Shown here piece by piece: positions 10,955 through 17,757 of a DNA stretch of 17,757 nt. The DNA lies in the IMG/VR virus record IMGVR_UViG_2877285697_000007, one strand, 5' to 3'. Position numbers and translations under genes: made by a program. The stretch comes from a virus. Taxonomy: Duplodnaviria > Heunggongvirae > Uroviricota > Caudoviricetes. How positions within the stretch are numbered: the first letter of the stretch is position 1; each line of letters begins with the position of its first letter. The notes below the pieces were generated by a model. It made no database searches. It was not told the origin of the DNA and worked only from the letters and a program-made list of their open reading frames with translations.

Positions 10955-11026
10955 TGAAGTGGCACACTGAATTTGGCCACCTGAACAGAGGTGATATGCT
11001 CACCTCAGAACAACACAGGTGCTCCA

Positions 11027-12195
<1,169 letters not shown>

Positions 12196-12289
12196 CCACT
12201 TCACAAATGTGCGCTGGCTATTACGGCTGTAATGGCGATTTATTGTCTTGCTATTGTTCTTATGGATCGCCTTTCTGACTGATTTCACA

Positions 12290-12318
12290 TTGGCGAGGTA
12301 ACGGTAGTTAAGTAGAAT
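12290..12318 (+). promoter_or_regulatory. Candidate sigma-70 promoter of the hok mRNA: -35 TTGGCG, 17-bp spacer, -10 TAGAAT
   Basis: Hexamers read from the sequence. It sits just upstream of GGGTGCTTGAGGCTATCTGCCTCGG (12326-12349), which resembles the 5' leader element of plasmid R1 hok mRNA as I recall it. Confidence 0.45.
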
Positions 12319-12493
12319 GGCTGCGGGTGCTTGAGGCTATCTGCCTCGGGCATGAACACCAACGGCAGATAGAGAAAAGCCCCAGTTAACATTACGCGTC
12401 CTGCAAGACGCTTAACATTAATCTGAGGCCAATTTCATGCTAGACACATGTAGGTTAGCCTCTTACGTGCCGAAAGGCAAGGAGAAGCAGGCT

Positions 12494-12649
12494 ATGAAGC
12501 AGCAAAAGGCGATGTTAATCGCCCTGATCGTCATCTGTTTAACCGTCATAGTGACGGCACTGGTAACGAGGAAAGACCTCTGCGAGGTACGAATCCGAAC
12601 CGGCCAGACGGAGGTCGCTGTCTTCACAGCTTACGAACCTGAGGAGTAA
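12494..12649 (+). CDS. hok: Hok/Gef-family type I toxin, 51 aa
   Basis: MKQQKAMLIALIVICLTVIVTALVTRKDLCEVRIRTGQTEVAVFTAYEPEE: one N-terminal transmembrane helix and the conserved DLCE motif; closest recalled paralogs are HokD/RelF and HokC/Gef. RBS AAGGAGAAG precedes the ATG. An in-frame ATG at 12437 gives a 70-aa mok-like extension. Confidence 0.85.
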   Translation: MKQQKAMLIALIVICLTVIVTALVTRKDLCEVRIRTGQTEVAVFTAYEPEE

Positions 12650-12718
12650 GAGACCCGGCGAGGGAGAAATCCCTCGCCACCTCTGATGTGGCAGGCATCC
12701 TCAACGCACCCGCACTTA

Positions 12719-12749
12719 ACCCGCTTCGGCGGGTTTTTGTTTTTATTTT
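12719..12749 (+). terminator. Intrinsic terminator of the hok transcript
   Basis: Stem ACCCGC / GCGGGT with a TTCG loop, followed by TTTTGTTTTTATTTT. Confidence 0.75.
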
Positions 12750-12865
12750 CAACGCGTTTGAAGTTCTGGACGGTGCCGGAATAGAATCAAAAATACTTAA
12801 GTAGCGCGCAGGGATAAGAGGGATGGTCCCTTAAAGGGGAGAGCTAATTATCCGGAAGGATTCTG

Positions 12866-12949
12866 ATGATGAACATCGAAGAACTGCGTAAAATTTTTTG
12901 TGAAGATGGCCTCTATGCTGTGTGCGTTGAAAATGGAAATCTTGTTTGA
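12866..12949 (+). other. Small ORF (27 codons, MMNIEELRKIFCEDGLYAVCVENGNLV) apparently truncated by IS911
   Basis: Good RBS (AAGGA, 5-nt spacer). Its stop codon TGA is the first three bases of the IS911 copy B terminal repeat, so it is either a gene remnant or a chance ORF. Confidence 0.25.
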
Positions 12950-12954
12950 AGTGG

Positions 12955-14123
<1,169 letters not shown>

Positions 14124-14373
14124 TGGAGCACCTGTGTTGTTCTGAGGTGAGCATATCACCTCTGTTCAGGTGGCCAAATTCAGTGTGCCACTTCATTGAG
14201 AACCAGCACCACAACCTCCTGTATTGGACGTACACCAGTCCTGATGAATATGAGGCTGTCTCGTCAGTGATTCAATACAACTATTGGGTATAGTTTCTCT
14301 GATTTTTTCTGTGGAAATGGGGCTCAACCACTAGTCATTTAATACGCAAAGTCCGATACAAGCTAACCTTCTA

Positions 14374-14397
14374 GTCCGCTTTGAGCGAAAAGCGGAC
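14374..14397. repeat. Palindromic hairpin GTCCGCTTT / AAAGCGGAC with a 6-nt loop, about 60 bp past the HAD gene stop
   Basis: Read from the sequence. The same stem core recurs at 15840-15863. No T-run follows it on either strand, so it is not a classic intrinsic terminator. Confidence 0.5.
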
Positions 14398-14457
14398 GTT
14401 GGAAGTTTAAAACTCGCGAACTACTCAGCGTCCATTGATGCGTATTGTGTAACGTGA

Positions 14458-15096
14458 TTAACCACAGATGATATTGAAACGTTCTCCGGAAATCTTGACC
14501 ATAATGTCAGACAGTTCGCTGACGGCATGGGCTTCAGATGATCCCAGAGCGTCAGGCTGAACAGCTATTACCGAAGCTCCACTTGCCAGCCCTGCTTTTA
14601 TACCCGCAGATGCATCCTCAAATACCACGCATTCACCAGGCTCAAGGCCCAAAGCCAAAGCTGCTTTGATGTAACCCTCGGGACTTGGTTTTCCCGTCAT
14701 TACATCTTCTGCACACACCATTACTATGGGTAAGGGGAGATTAGCCGCTTTCATCCTGTTTTCTGCAAGCATTCTGCCTGCAGAAGTGACAAGTGCCCAG
14801 CTATCCGGTGGCAGTTTTGATAAGAGTGCAGCGGCCCCTTTTACTTCAGTAACGCCTTCTGTCGTGTTGATTTCAACCTCTTCGAGTGAGGCCGCGATTT
14901 TATTGGTTTTCTCACCTGCACCAATAAAATGCGTCAGTGTATCAATCGTTTGCCGCCCGTGTGCGTAAGCAATCACAGCCTGAGTATCAAGACCGTATTC
15001 TGCACAAAAATCTCTCCAGACGCTTTCCACTACGGCTGTTGAATCAACCAGCGTACCGTCCATATCGAATAAAAAACCCTTAGCGTTGAATATCAT
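14458..15096 (-). CDS. HAD-superfamily phosphatase (subfamily IA, sugar-phosphatase / beta-phosphoglucomutase-like), about 212 aa
   Basis: Motif I FLFDMDGTLVDS, plus VTSA, TGKPSPEGY and VVFEDASAGIKAG; resembles E. coli YfbT/HxpB-type hexitol phosphatases from memory. Start is placed at the second ATG (15094-15096), which has AAGGA 6 nt upstream; the track start is 15102. Confidence 0.8.
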   Translation of the reverse strand: MIFNAKGFLFDMDGTLVDSTAVVESVWRDFCAEYGLDTQAVIAYAHGRQTIDTLTHFIGAGEKTNKIAASLEEVEINTTEGVTEVKGAAALLSKLPPDSWALVTSAGRMLAENRMKAANLPLPIVMVCAEDVMTGKPSPEGYIKAALALGLEPGECVVFEDASAGIKAGLASGASVIAVQPDALGSSEAHAVSELSDIMVKISGERFNIICG

Positions 15097-15125
15097 TGCC
15101 ATTCCTTAATGGTTGCAGAAGAAAG

Positions 15126-15764
15126 TTAATCAAACCATGTTTTTTCATCACCTTTCGCTACTCTCAGGCTGACAGCAATCTGCTCAGGCACAATTCTTGA
15201 AAGCGACAATTCAGGCAGGTCGTTGACATCAAAAAAATCAGCATCGAGTGACTCATGGCTGATTGACAGGCTGCCACCTACTTCTTCACAGAGAAAAATC
15301 AGCTTGTAAACATGCCAGGGTAAAGGCGGATGGCCGTGAAGATTACGATCCCAAACTCCCAATAGTTTAGTCACTCTGACTTTTAATCCGGTTTCTTCTT
15401 CGACCTCTCGACGCACAGCTTCAGAAGGTGTATCTCCAACATCTGCCCATCCGCCAGGAAGACTCCATAATCCATCTGCAGCCTCTTTCACCATCAGAAT
15501 ACGATTATTACGCAGGATAAACGCACGCACATCTGTTTTGGGCGTCGCGTAACCCGTTTCCGATACATGAAACAAATCATTGCGGCTAATATCAAACTGC
15601 GAACTCAGCAGTCCAGCGGCAATTTCACGCAAGGCTTCATAGCGTTCCTTGTCAAAGACGTCTTTTGAATAGGTCAGGCCTGACTGCGCGAGGGCCTTTA
15701 GTCTCTGGGCAACAAAAATAAGCTTTTCTTGGGTCAACACTTCAGACATGTTTTTCATCTTCAT
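15126..15764 (-). CDS. NUDIX hydrolase with an N-terminal extension, ADP-ribose pyrophosphatase-like, 212 aa
   Basis: Nudix-box-like segment GGWADVGDTPSEAVRREVEEETGL (REVEEETGL fits REUxEExGU) preceded by a ~70-aa N-terminal domain. Start is ambiguous among three Met codons (MKMKNM). Stop is 23 bp upstream of the HAD start, suggesting an operon. Confidence 0.8.
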   Translation of the reverse strand: MKMKNMSEVLTQEKLIFVAQRLKALAQSGLTYSKDVFDKERYEALREIAAGLLSSQFDISRNDLFHVSETGYATPKTDVRAFILRNNRILMVKEAADGLWSLPGGWADVGDTPSEAVRREVEEETGLKVRVTKLLGVWDRNLHGHPPLPWHVYKLIFLCEEVGGSLSISHESLDADFFDVNDLPELSLSRIVPEQIAVSLRVAKGDEKTWFD

Positions 15765-15839
15765 TTATGTATTCAGAGTTCCTGTTAAGGATACTGCTCA
15801 ATTCAATGAAGAATAACAAATGCATCTGGCACCTGCTAT

Positions 15840-15863
15840 GTCCGCTTCTGGCACAAAGCGGAC
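15840..15863. repeat. Palindromic hairpin GTCCGCTT / AAGCGGAC with an 8-nt loop, between the 133-aa gene and the NUDIX gene
   Basis: Same stem sequence as the hairpin at 14374-14397; the two bracket the NUDIX-HAD pair. Confidence 0.5.
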
Positions 15864-15960
15864 AACCACGCCAGATCTACCCTGTGCCATGAAAAATGAG
15901 AATGTCAATTCACTCCTGAACTAATGCTTTTTAATCTAGTAACGTCTAAAATACCTAACA

Positions 15961-16362
15961 TTATCCCTGATAAAATGCCAGTATGCGCTGCATAACTTCA
16001 CTCATCCGGCACTCGCGACAGATTATGTTTAGGCGACTGTCGTAGCGACGTATTTCTCCATCAGGTAACGACCAGATAAGGTCCGGATCAACCACAGCTG
16101 TTTTCTTCACCTTTGCCCTCGATAGTTTTTTGCGGGCGTTTTGCCAGTCCTTACGCGCCTGTTCAGACGGGAATAACCCGTAGCCGGAGTTGTATACATC
16201 GCCACTGGCTACCAGCTCTCTGGCAAGAACGCTCATCAGATATCTAGTCGCACCTGTTTTAGCTTCCAGTTGCCGTAACGTCTCACGACCGCTCTGGCGC
16301 ACGAGTTCCACCACCTGCCCTTTAATTTTTTCCCGCTCTTCTTGTGTAAAAACTTTTGCCAC
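15961..16362 (-). CDS. Hypothetical small basic protein, 133 aa, with a possible helix-turn-helix (TLRQLEAKTGATRYLMSVLAREL)
   Basis: ORF with a GTG start at 16360-16362 preceded by GGGGGA. I recognise no family; the HTH assignment is by eye only. Confidence 0.5.
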   Translation of the reverse strand: MAKVFTQEEREKIKGQVVELVRQSGRETLRQLEAKTGATRYLMSVLARELVASGDVYNSGYGLFPSEQARKDWQNARKKLSRAKVKKTAVVDPDLIWSLPDGEIRRYDSRLNIICRECRMSEVMQRILAFYQG

Positions 16363-16402
16363 AAGTCCCCCTTAAAATTACCTCATGACCTGAAATCAAA
16401 AC

Positions 16403-16927
16403 TTATCCTCTGAAACCAGGCGGAATTTCTGTATCCGGTTCAGAAATATGATTCACACAACGCTGTACAGGTGAACGTCCCAGGCGGATGACCAGTTCGT
16501 CCCATTTTTCGCGGAGTTTTGACGGGCTCATGATGTTTTTTACCCAGAATGGATCCCGCTGTACCCGACCAAACATTTCGCAAATTTGTCTGTGGCTTCT
16601 GCCATCCAGCATCCGCATTGTGCGCACGTCATTGGCCCAGGCTGTCCAGTTAGGCTCTTTTGGTCGCATGATCTCTCCATCGTCGCTGGCAGCCTGTTCG
16701 TAAAGGTTCACGATCCGCCCCCAAATCCACTGCGCACACGCCAAATCCTCCCTGCTACCCCACTGGCGTTTTTTCACACTAAACACAACCGCGTCGGGGT
16801 TCCGGGTTAAAAAATCCTGTTCAGTCGTCTGCGGGTCCGGTTGCGAAGCTTCCGGACGAAAAGTGTTTTTATTCTCTGTAGTAATCTCTGTTGTATGAGG
16901 TGTACTGGCAATAGCGGACACTACCAT
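16403..16927 (-). CDS. DnaT-C-terminal-domain-like protein (prophage / plasmid replication-associated), 174-aa ORF
   Basis: C-terminus ...NHISEPDTEIPPGFRG closely resembles the C-terminus of E. coli primosomal protein DnaT as I recall it (...SEPDSQIPPGFRG). The first ~11 codons overlap the presumed IS600 terminal repeat, so the native 5' end is uncertain. Confidence 0.5.
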   Translation of the reverse strand: MVVSAIASTPHTTEITTENKNTFRPEASQPDPQTTEQDFLTRNPDAVVFSVKKRQWGSREDLACAQWIWGRIVNLYEQAASDDGEIMRPKEPNWTAWANDVRTMRMLDGRSHRQICEMFGRVQRDPFWVKNIMSPSKLREKWDELVIRLGRSPVQRCVNHISEPDTEIPPGFRG

Positions 16928-17757
16928 TTGTTCTTTTTTTAAGCAGCCATCTGATGATATTTTTCCCTGAAGGCTGCCGGGGAGATATTCCCCAGACGAG
17001 AGTGACGACGCTGACGATTGTAGAAAATCTCAATGTATTCCCGTATTACTGAGATGGCTTCATCCCGGTTATTAAAACGATAGTGGCTCAGGCTCTCATT
17101 TTTCAGCGTTCCCCAGAAGCTTTCCATCGGAGCGTTGTCGTAACAGTTACCTTTACGCGACATTGATGTTTTCAGACCAGACTGCTCCTGTATGACCCGG
17201 TAATCGTATGCGCAGTACTGTGAACCTCGATCAGAGTGGTGGATTAGCCCGGCAGGTGGGCGCTGGCTCCTGAGCGCCATAAACAGGGCTTTACCTGTCA
17301 GCTCTTTTGTCATGCGCTCTCCCATGGCGTAGCCGACAATTTCGCACGTATAAACATCTTTGATGCCAGCGAGGTACAACCATCCCTCCTGTGTGGCAAC
17401 ATACGTCAGGTCCGCCACCCAGACCTGATTTGGTGCTGTAGGAGCGAACGTCTGGTTCAGCAGATTTGGCGCAACTGGCAGATTGTGGTTCGGGTTCGTA
17501 GTCGCTCTGAACTTGCGTTTCTGCTTACAGCGTAGCCTTAGCTCCTTACGAAGACGTGCCAGTCGGTCACGACCAACGATGATGCCATTCTCTGCCAGCT
17601 CCGTCTGGAGCCGCCGGGTTCCATATGTTTCGCGAGTGCGGATATGTGCCACCTTAATCTCCAGTTTTAGCCGCTCATCACTTTGTTTTCTGTCTGAGGG
17701 TTCATGCTGTACCCAGTTGTAATAACCGCTCCTGGATACACCAAATACCTGACACAT
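16895..17757 (-). mobile_element. IS3-family element, IS600-like, partial (continues beyond the window end)
   Basis: Terminal sequence TGAGGTGTACTGGCAATAGCGGACAC resembles IS3-family inverted repeats (compare IS3 CAATAGTGGACAC). Encodes an IS600-like OrfB. The inner boundary is approximate. Confidence 0.65.
16939..17757 (-). CDS. IS3-family transposase OrfB (IS600-like), 5' end outside the window
   Basis: MCQVFGVSRSGYYNWVQ... with a DDE/rve core (VWVADLTYV, HHSDRGSQYCA, CYDNAPMESFW). The ORF reaches the window edge; orfA and the frameshift site are not in the window. Confidence 0.85.
   Translation of the reverse strand: MCQVFGVSRSGYYNWVQHEPSDRKQSDERLKLEIKVAHIRTRETYGTRRLQTELAENGIIVGRDRLARLRKELRLRCKQKRKFRATTNPNHNLPVAPNLLNQTFAPTAPNQVWVADLTYVATQEGWLYLAGIKDVYTCEIVGYAMGERMTKELTGKALFMALRSQRPPAGLIHHSDRGSQYCAYDYRVIQEQSGLKTSMSRKGNCYDNAPMESFWGTLKNESLSHYRFNNRDEAISVIREYIEIFYNRQRRHSRLGNISPAAFREKYHQMAA

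Follow-up and report, generated by a model that had tools for sequence, protein, structure and literature searches.

The window analysed here, a 17,757-nucleotide (nt) stretch of the IMG/VR virus record IMGVR_UViG_2877285697_000007, carries two adjacent genes, coding for a NUDIX hydrolase and a HAD-IA phosphatase, which lie between two copies of a short palindrome. Comparison with other phages showed that this NUDIX-HAD cassette is exchanged horizontally as a discrete element, bounded by the palindromes. On balance, we favour the explanation that the locus is a mobile moron cassette with fixed palindromic ends, encoding the two-step breakdown of a pyrimidine-nucleotide-linked compound. The cassette, of 1.49 kb, occupies a variable hotspot in a lambdoid prophage of the Qin/Rac type, between O/DUF977 and hokD/rem.

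Exact ends of the cassette in lambdoid and P2-like phages

The gene pair is bracketed by two palindromes of 24 nt, located at positions 14374-14397 (GTCCGCTTTGAGCGAAAAGCGGAC; L site) and 15840-15863 (GTCCGCTTCTGGCACAAAGCGGAC; R site), whose arms of 8 bp are identical. When GTCCGCTT-N8-AAGCGGAC was searched for with up to two mismatches, two matches were found in the window, compared with a mean of 0.01 in shuffled sequences, and none of 200 shuffles reached two, which rules out a chance origin of the pair.

A megablast search of GenBank phages showed that two P2-like phages, P24C9 and 10W, match the window solely over positions 14373-15863, with 99.5% identity. In P24C9 the cassette is located in the Z/fun hotspot, between the tail-fibre assembly gene G and the sheath gene FI. 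The homology between the window and the P2-like phages breaks at or inside the palindromes, at 14373/14374 on the L side and at 15863 on the R side, and in their flanks the lambdoid and P2 copies have in common just the boundary motifs of 15-24 nt. The outer arms depend on the context (GTCTGCTTG versus GTCCGCTTT, and GAGCGGAC versus AAGCGGAC). Both sites of P24C9 are hybrid, with a P2-type outer arm that mispairs with the donor-type inner arm, indicating that both crossovers took place within or next to the loops. The original prediction, made from the window alone, had noticed the shared palindrome, and the shuffles confirm that observation; it had treated the palindromes as a mere bracketing feature, while in P24C9 and 10W they are the exact boundaries of an exchanged cassette in a known hotspot. 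Another P2-like phage, 11W, carries at its Z/fun site a decayed NUDIX-HAD copy (L002, 5001-6341; 33% covered, 91% identity), a remnant that contains runs of N and is annotated only as 'similar to hypothetical protein'.

The same ends have been annotated before. The GenBank records AJ512682, AJ512683 and AJ512685 are titled 'proviral Z-region' and contain 'left inverted repeat' and 'right inverted repeat' features, the left one stopping precisely where the R palindrome ends and the right one beginning precisely at the L palindrome. The P2-like Z-region records AJ512679-AJ512685 reportedly stem from the work of Nilsson, Karlsson & Haggard-Ljungquist in 2004 (Mol Biol Evol 21:1).

At the R site the outer arm and the loop are kept by the phage flank, except for the final base of the loop, which goes with the inner arm to the cargo; at the L site the inner arm is kept by the cargo, and the loop TCGCTCA and the outer arm by the phage flank. 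The backbone supplies GTCCGCTT-TGTGCCA^ upstream and ^TCGCTCA-AAGCGGAC downstream (coding strand, the caret marking the breakpoint), and the inner arms that pair with these, N-AAGCGGAC ... GTCCGCTT-N, come with the cargo.

Other cargos at the same breakpoints

The same motifs, ...GTCCGCTYTGTGCCA^ and ^TCGCTCAAAGCRGAC, enclose at least seven other cargos in lambdoid settings and eight cargos in P2-like phages. Across 27 loci with lambdoid flanks, the upstream side was constant through GTCCGCTTTGTGCCA and the downstream side from TCGCTCAAAGCGGAC, and lambdoid loci with different cargos retained a constant flank up to TGTGCCA. The cargo-side arm differs by cargo, being degenerate in some (GGCTGTTTT, TTCCGTTGT) or absent. 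The DUF977 gene borders the hotspot in AR_0017, MJ-T, GZM7 and M1, with a different cargo in each, and in other Escherichia coli the DUF977-hokD interval holds a HEPN protein, a 340-amino-acid (aa) hypothetical protein, or no annotated gene.

The P2 flank was found at only two loci in IMG/VR, and the P2 comparison was therefore built on GenBank phages. In these, the flanks AATCTGACAGTCCGCTCTGTGCCA and TCGCTCAAAGCAGACTGTCAGATT, which are mutually inverted repeats, enclose eight cargos (P2 fun/orf30, WPhi orf44, P2_AC1, EC53, EC58, EC67, an IMG/VR cargo and NUDIX-HAD); the NUDIX-HAD pair of P24C9 and 10W is, like the others, an inverted-repeat-flanked Z-region insert between G and FI. The cargos seen at the hotspot include GmrSD_N with HEPN, adenosine deaminase with Ham1 and SIR2, glyoxalase, GNAT and NmrA with HxlR, in either orientation.

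Scanning IMG/VR for GTCCGCTT-N8-AAGCGGAC returned at least 120 loci. Among the matches listed, the coding-strand loops fall into two classes, R (TGTGCCAG) and L (TTCGCTCA). Distinct cassettes are recognized by R-to-L spacings that recur, and neighbouring ones by L-then-R junctions with a distance of 35-45 nt. One R-L bounded locus of the lambdoid hotspot (L046:1793-5305; IMG/VR 2531839583_000011) encodes an adenosine deaminase, a Ham1-family NTP pyrophosphatase and a SIR2-like protein, a three-gene cargo that looks like an unnamed nucleotide-targeting defence candidate. Two more palindrome-bounded loci encode GmrSD_N (DUF262) with a RiboL-PSP HEPN protein (L075:2901-5053) and a 310-aa protein that RefSeq describes as HEPN domain-containing and for which no Pfam family was found (L004:4292-5224).

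In the Qin prophage of K-12 W3110 (L267:3501-3530), a degenerate R-type half-site, GTCCGCTTTGTGCCAGGAGCAGCC, lies inside the annotated gene ydfV, in the opposite orientation and adjoining relB-relE-hokD, which places the classical relBE locus at the same hotspot; what is annotated as ydfV may in fact be a boundary site and no gene. K-12 Qin was set aside as an informative case, as it holds solely this degenerate half-site.

How the cargo is exchanged

Since the breakpoints are invariant, site- or structure-directed recombination is favoured over random illegitimate insertion. Candidate routes would be site-specific recombination (11-6-11 geometry), hairpin or cruciform processing, and short-homology recombination by phage recombinases.

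It could also be argued that the palindromes are mere RNA stem-loops, acting as insulators, stabilizers or weak terminators, and that swapping is due to homologous recombination in the conserved phage genes alongside. Both palindromes do fold in the transcript as stable hairpins of 9-10 bp, the classical description of morons includes regulatory elements of their own (PMC3573123), and the outer and inner arms of WPhi have changed in step (GTCCAC with GTGG), which fits selection for pairing; in addition, many lambdoid loci have flanks that are 100% identical over at least 150 nt, ample for homologous exchange. Nevertheless, the terminator scan called neither palindrome and a U-tract is absent after both (the downstream sequences being ATAGCAGG and TAGAAGG), and several cargos whose inner arms are degenerate or missing, and which hence form no hairpin, keep the breakpoint. 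Moreover, the same 15-nt boundary motifs recur in unrelated flanks (P2 tail, lambdoid replication and chromosomal), so that flank homology cannot explain the transfer between contexts. We regard the stem-loop explanation as rather doubtful.

Properties of the two enzymes

The NUDIX protein matched the Pfam families Nudix_N over residues 14-61 (7.6e-18) and NUDIX over residues 77-184 (7.9e-19), and PHROG 25541 at 4e-148. Its closest solved structures were 3Q1P, the CDP-Chase of Bacillus cereus (7e-50 over residues 19-204), 3O8S, and 4HFQ (2e-37), the UDP-X diphosphatase SP_1669 of Streptococcus pneumoniae. Enzymes of the UDP-Xase/CDP-Chase subfamily have about 200-210 aa, with an N-terminal helical domain (Nudix_N) followed by the Nudix fold, form an asymmetric homodimer and carry the motifs GUXXarX2DXXarDX[E/D]RXar, a YXTP hinge, LPXLS and GXarXsm[E/D]UX2[S/T]X2EX3KEUXEEXGU (PMC3655063). 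The protein of the window has this size and architecture, and direct reading of its translation located the helix-loop-helix motif at G29-LTYSKDVFDKER-Y42 (GLTYSKDVFDKERY), the hinge at Y72-ATP75 (YATP) and LPELS at L183-PELS187. All positions of the Nudix box, G105-WADVGDTPSEAVRREVEEETG-L127, fit save for a conservative change of K to R, and the catalytic box is intact. As judged by these motifs, the protein belongs to the UDP-X/CDP-choline diphosphatase subfamily. Members that carry the full set of motifs are also common in Enterobacterales (Cedecea, Leclercia, Kluyvera, Pantoea and Sodalis) and in E. coli prophages.

The substrates of the subfamily are UDP-sugars, UDP-MurNAc derivatives or CDP-choline, and its enzymes are 3'-5' RNA exonucleases in addition (PMC3655063). 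Membership of the subfamily therefore points to pyrimidine nucleotide-linked sugars or alcohols as the probable substrates, and not to ADP-ribose or cyclic signalling nucleotides, which the original prediction had listed among the compounds for a substrate screen; the motifs suggest UDP-X or CDP-X compounds instead.

The HAD protein matched Pfam HAD_2 (5.4e-22; 79.2 bits, cut-off 23.8) and the NCBIfam family HAD-SF-IA-v3 (TIGR01509; 59.8 bits, cut-off 29.4), and contains the catalytic motif I, DxDGT, at F12-DMDGT-17. Its score for the equivalog of YfbT/HxpA-type sugar phosphatases (PRK11587) was 189.3 bits, under the cut-off of 282; the protein is a relative, and not an orthologue, of YfbT/HxpA. 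With the glycerol-3-phosphatase of yeast (2QLT, 2e-22) as its closest solved structure, the protein appears to resemble sugar or polyol phosphate phosphatases. The Pfam and NCBIfam domain matches agree with the initial description of the pair as a NUDIX hydrolase with an N-terminal extension and a HAD-IA phosphatase separated by 23 bp.

Based on these assignments, the NUDIX enzyme would convert NDP-X (a nucleoside diphosphate linked to a sugar or alcohol) to the nucleoside monophosphate and X-phosphate, and the HAD enzyme would then release X and phosphate. Both steps together would irreversibly drain a nucleotide-activated sugar or alcohol.

Conservation of the gene pair

The NUDIX-then-HAD order is kept in five independent, diverged non-phage contigs with 72-91% aa identity, a result that lends support to the two-step idea put forward originally. 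The genes are separated by 26-28 nt in L014, L016, L265 and L266. L265 has the order GGACT-NUDIX-HAD, with a NUDIX protein of 91% aa identity, while L016 presents the complete arrangement R palindrome-GGACT-NUDIX-HAD-L palindrome at 85% nt identity. In L266 (HAD, 90% aa) an L palindrome is found 60 nt past the HAD gene, and in both L016 and L266 the distance from the HAD gene to the L palindrome is similar to that in the window. The HAD protein of L014/L015 has 72% aa identity, and the NUDIX protein about 80% if P0006 lies on the same contig of 12,437 bp. In L012/L013 the nucleotide homology to the window sets in precisely where the upstream palindrome has its outer edge, and adjoining genes of L012 occur across Enterobacterales. 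The palindromes thus travel with these genes outside phages as well.

These chromosomal relatives bear on a further explanation, namely that the pair is plain housekeeping or 'sanitation' cargo from the accessory genome of other Enterobacterales, which by chance lies between palindromes, was swept into hotspots and has no phage-related function. Close relatives have chromosomal-looking neighbours (GGACT, LysR, SDR and MFS genes), other cargos include glyoxalase, GNAT, NmrA/HxlR and RcnB-like genes, and the cassette is rare: of 5426 complete E. coli genomes, 19 contain 80% or more of the query. On the other hand, two unrelated phage types have kept the cassette intact, with an identity of 99.5% or higher, suggesting recent spread of a working cassette, and the decayed copy of 11W shows that unselected copies get lost. 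In addition, the Z/fun site of P2 has been characterized experimentally as a defence-enriched hotspot, with three validated systems and fun (PMC9519451). In our view, the housekeeping explanation is somewhat improbable.

Related palindromes beyond the hotspot

R-type palindromes were found in 2601 of the 5426 complete E. coli genomes, with a maximum of five; since the median is one per genome, they behave in E. coli as hotspot markers and not as a high-copy repeat. When each species was represented by a single genome, a scan with GTCCGCTT-YSKGYCAR-AAGCGGAC, for which we estimate about 0.1 chance matches, gave matches (among those listed) in Pantoea, Mixta, Klebsiella and Citrobacter, in Xanthomonadales and in many Alphaproteobacteria, e.g. 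Pseudolabrys. The sites listed span 24-28 nt and follow the extended consensus AT-GTCCGCTTT-N6-AAAGCGGAC-AT; in sequence, these distant sites appear to be related to the palindromes of the prophage. In Pantoea an RcnB-like gene lies between two R-type palindromes, and Alphaproteobacterial metagenome-assembled genomes (MAGs) carry several related palindromes per 8 kb, often paired.

Two arrangements in this collection deserve a description of their own. In Pantoea (L150:1420-5070), an ApeA-like HEPN gene and a SIR2 gene are located between two R-type palindromes, beside an integrase-like gene. In Proteobacterial and Alphaproteobacterial MAG contigs (L163:1485-4475 and L192:684-7673), pairs of related palindromes stand between single genes, which face in either direction, for example a pair with TGGGTCAA and TTAGCCAA loops located 57 nt apart, a layout that resembles a cassette array.

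A bolder proposal is that the palindromes are the recombination sites of an unrecognized integron-like or recombinase-mediated cassette-exchange system that operates across P2-like phages, lambdoid phages and chromosomes. Genes bounded by R and L sites could then be swapped at fixed nucleotides, related sites could organize single-gene arrays in Proteobacteria, and the exchange could be carried out by a tyrosine recombinase, by an HUH nuclease or by an activity of the host that processes hairpins. We consider such a dedicated system unlikely.

Assessment of the mobile moron reading

Several observations weigh against a mobile moron cassette dedicated to two-step breakdown. With regard to mobility, no empty site (outer arm, TGTGCCA, TCGCTCA and outer arm, with a gap of 0-30) was found in IMG/VR or in any of the fetched loci, and insertion into a single hairpin loop thus has no direct support; furthermore, swaps within one phage type can be put down to ordinary homologous recombination, for which the conserved flanks of the phages are long enough. 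As for expression in the lysogen, a sigma-70 promoter scan of the 75-nt leader upstream of the NUDIX gene gave no site reaching 9 of 12 matches. A sigma-54 promoter formed by the TGGCAC of the R loop was ruled out by inspection, as TTGC is absent at the right spacing.

The pairing of the two genes is real but partial. In L012/L013 the NUDIX gene (84% aa) stands alone between two R-type palindromes, the NUDIX homologues of Cedecea, Pseudescherichia and relatives (60-74% identity) stand singly in the chromosome, and the more distant HAD homologues are likewise singletons. The co-conservation about which the original prediction had asked is seen in the five contigs and fails in these cases. Finally, defence-like and plain metabolic cargos are mixed at the hotspot, which weakens guilt by association.

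The role of the pair is a matter of speculation. It might serve in lysogenic conversion or phage exclusion, through a lowered pool of UDP-glucose or of another envelope or DNA-modification precursor. PADLOC (PADLOC-DB v2) returned as its sole match the NUDIX domain, residues 80-186, to the candidate PDC-S07 at 36.8 bits, and none for the HAD protein; this generic match is in keeping with the earlier statement that the pair is no named defence system. It is very unlikely that the pair is expressed with the early or late phage operon as an anti-defence function that hydrolyses nucleotide-derived immune messengers of the host or derivatives of ADP-ribose: the genes do point the same way as the early-right operon of lambdoid phages and the late tail operon of P2, making read-through possible in lytic growth, and some homologues carry the database name 'ADP-ribose pyrophosphatase YjhB', but the characterized relatives use UDP-X and CDP-choline and not ADP-ribose or cyclic nucleotides, the nearest homologues occur in chromosomal, non-phage settings, and almost no anti-defence genes are found among P2 elements (NAR 2026).

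Anti-phage systems are nowadays sought above all in prophage hotspots. How hotspot cargo enters and leaves is usually put down to 'recombination', and the locus described here gives unusually clean boundaries at the nucleotide level. As these are common to more than 15 different cargos and to two unrelated phage types, the exchange mechanism becomes testable with short synthetic sites. The analysis also singles out a two-enzyme cargo, catalytically intact as judged by its motifs, in a hotspot with validated defences; if the pair drains a nucleotide-sugar pool, this would be a simple metabolic route to an altered surface or to blocked phage DNA modification. Even if the cargo is mundane, the boundary motifs can be used to delimit and harvest hotspot cargos from genomes.

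Layout of the locus and prophage context

The features of the cassette region are listed in Table 1. The cassette has a G+C content of 46.5%, with 0.41-0.42 at third codon positions, compared with 54.8% in the late genes of the window and 50% in the adjacent DUF977 gene; the AT-richness that had been noticed by eye is thus real, if modest. The motif GCWTCTGGCAC occurs twice, 22 nt apart, at 15844-15854 in the R palindrome and at 15822-15832 just inside the cargo. The latter, read as GTGCCAGAxGC in the leader, may have been left behind by a former R site.

Table 1. Features of the NUDIX-HAD cassette and its flanks (positions in the window)
Feature	Position	Strand	Description
NUDIX hydrolase gene	15126-15764	minus	212 aa; Nudix_N four-helix domain and Nudix fold (predicted)
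HAD-IA phosphatase gene	14458-15102	minus	214 aa (212 aa counted from third codon)
NUDIX/HAD intergenic spacer	15103-15125	minus	23 nt; operon-like
Leader, R site to NUDIX start codon	15765-15839	minus	75 nt; belongs to mobile cassette; identical in P24C9 and AR_0017
3' untranslated stretch, HAD stop codon to L site	14398-14457	minus	60 nt; in mobile cassette; identical in P24C9 and AR_0017
R site, upstream boundary palindrome	15840-15863	minus	coding strand GTCCGCTT-TGTGCCAG-AAGCGGAC
L site, downstream boundary palindrome	14374-14397	minus	coding strand GTCCGCTT-TTCGCTCA-AAGCGGAC
Hotspot flank, hokD side	14196-14373		lambdoid prophage; colinear with AR_0017; IS911 cuts at 14195/14196
Hotspot flank, replication side	15864-16362	minus	includes DUF977 / Ren-like gene
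DUF977 / Ren-like gene	15961-16362	minus	Pfam DUF977 6e-27; PHROG 142

In E. coli AR_0017 the cassette, together with the flanks that it has in the window (99.9% identity), belongs to an intact lambdoid prophage similar to Qin/Rac, where it lies between O/DUF977 and hokD/rem, free of insertion sequence (IS) elements. Positions 14196-16896 of the window are 99.9% identical to this prophage, and the colinearity stops inside the O-like replication gene, of which the C-terminal 174 aa are left (16403-16927); the gene is cut by the open reading frame (ORF) of an IS3-family transposase at 16939-17757, which reaches the end of the window. The two IS911 copies, at 10955-12203 and 12947-14195, are 100% identical and inverted relative to each other, and the 743-nt segment between them (12204-12946), which contains hokD (ORF 12437-12649), is inverted compared with AR_0017. 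This suggests an IS911-mediated inversion behind the flipped hokD segment. As the cassette occurs in AR_0017 in the absence of IS911 and the IS3-family element, both arrived later in the window and are incidental to the cassette. The original prediction had correctly seen the IS context, although the elements are bystanders; taken as a whole, it was borne out in part, its gene calls, domains and shared palindrome being right.

In the 19 E. coli genomes with at least 80% of the query, the contexts that we inspected were prophages, consistent with the earlier view that the pair is no E. coli core locus. A plasmid search did not find the cassette. Most of the other E. coli genomes with any match (1290) matched only in short flank-plus-palindrome pieces, among them the hokD-side flank with the L palindrome (14338-14402), which matched in most of the 1290.

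Comparison with known systems

The closest known elements are the inserts of the P2 Z-region, where cargo is variable and lies in either orientation and where the identical NUDIX-HAD cassette occurs at Z/fun in P24C9 and 10W. This G-FI site corresponds to moron position 2 (PMC3573123). The copy of the window differs in its location, a lambdoid prophage, between DUF977 and hokD; its core motifs (GTCCGCTTTGTGCCA and TCGCTCAAAGCGGAC) agree with those of the P2 inserts, and its flanks are lambdoid. Hotspots of P2, P4 and other prophages have been described with a fixed position and fast-swapped cargo, much of it defence-like, as is the case here, and with near-identical cargo in different mobile elements, like the cassette of the window (Rousset et al. 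2022, PMC9122126; Vassallo et al. 2022, PMC9519451; Moura de Sousa et al. 2026, PMC13586616). The description in these papers does not include the precise sequence boundaries of the cargo, which are given here. The texts of PMC9122126 and PMC13586616 contained no hairpins, palindromes or NUDIX, and PMC9519451, searched for NUDIX only, did not mention it. A literature search by palindrome sequence returned unrelated primer matches only.

With respect to the enzymes, the NUDIX protein shares the two-domain architecture and all the subfamily motifs with the UDP-X diphosphatase (4HFQ) and CDP-Chase (3Q1P). That subfamily has been described as limited to Gram-positive bacteria (PMC3655063) and has no HAD partner there, whereas the NUDIX gene of the window is paired with a HAD gene and occurs in Enterobacterales and phages.

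The modules of integrons (attC) and of Acinetobacter (pdif, XerC/D) are likewise small cargos of one or a few genes with short palindromic sites and fixed breakpoints, and the array-like units described above (L163, L192 and the L-then-R junctions of 35-45 nt) resemble integron and pdif cassette arrays. However, attC sites have at least 55 nt (about 55-140) and a GTTRRRY core, compared with 24-28 nt for the palindromes described here; no consistent GTTRRRY was seen at the junctions by inspection, and no integron integrase is present in the window. The extended consensus matches the 11-6-11 geometry of dif-type sites, with breakpoints at the boundary between loop and inner arm. To our knowledge the palindromes have no sequence similarity to dif, and we know of no dependence of these sites on an integrase or on Xer. 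They further differ from integron and pdif sites in being low-copy and prophage-borne in E. coli. REP-type palindromes are also short, conserved and intergenic, and in Alphaproteobacteria such as Pseudolabrys the sites described here are multi-copy and often paired; REP sequences, in contrast, carry a GTAG/GTGG head, are associated with a RAYT transposase and occur in many copies, while the palindromes studied here are without such a head and have a median of one per E. coli genome. An Rfam search with the cassette and nine related loci gave no family for the palindromes. Taken together, the comparison indicates that the kind of element is already known, an inverted-repeat-bounded moron at prophage hotspots, and that what is new is the NUDIX-HAD cargo and the fact that it occupies a lambdoid hotspot whose boundary motifs are the same.

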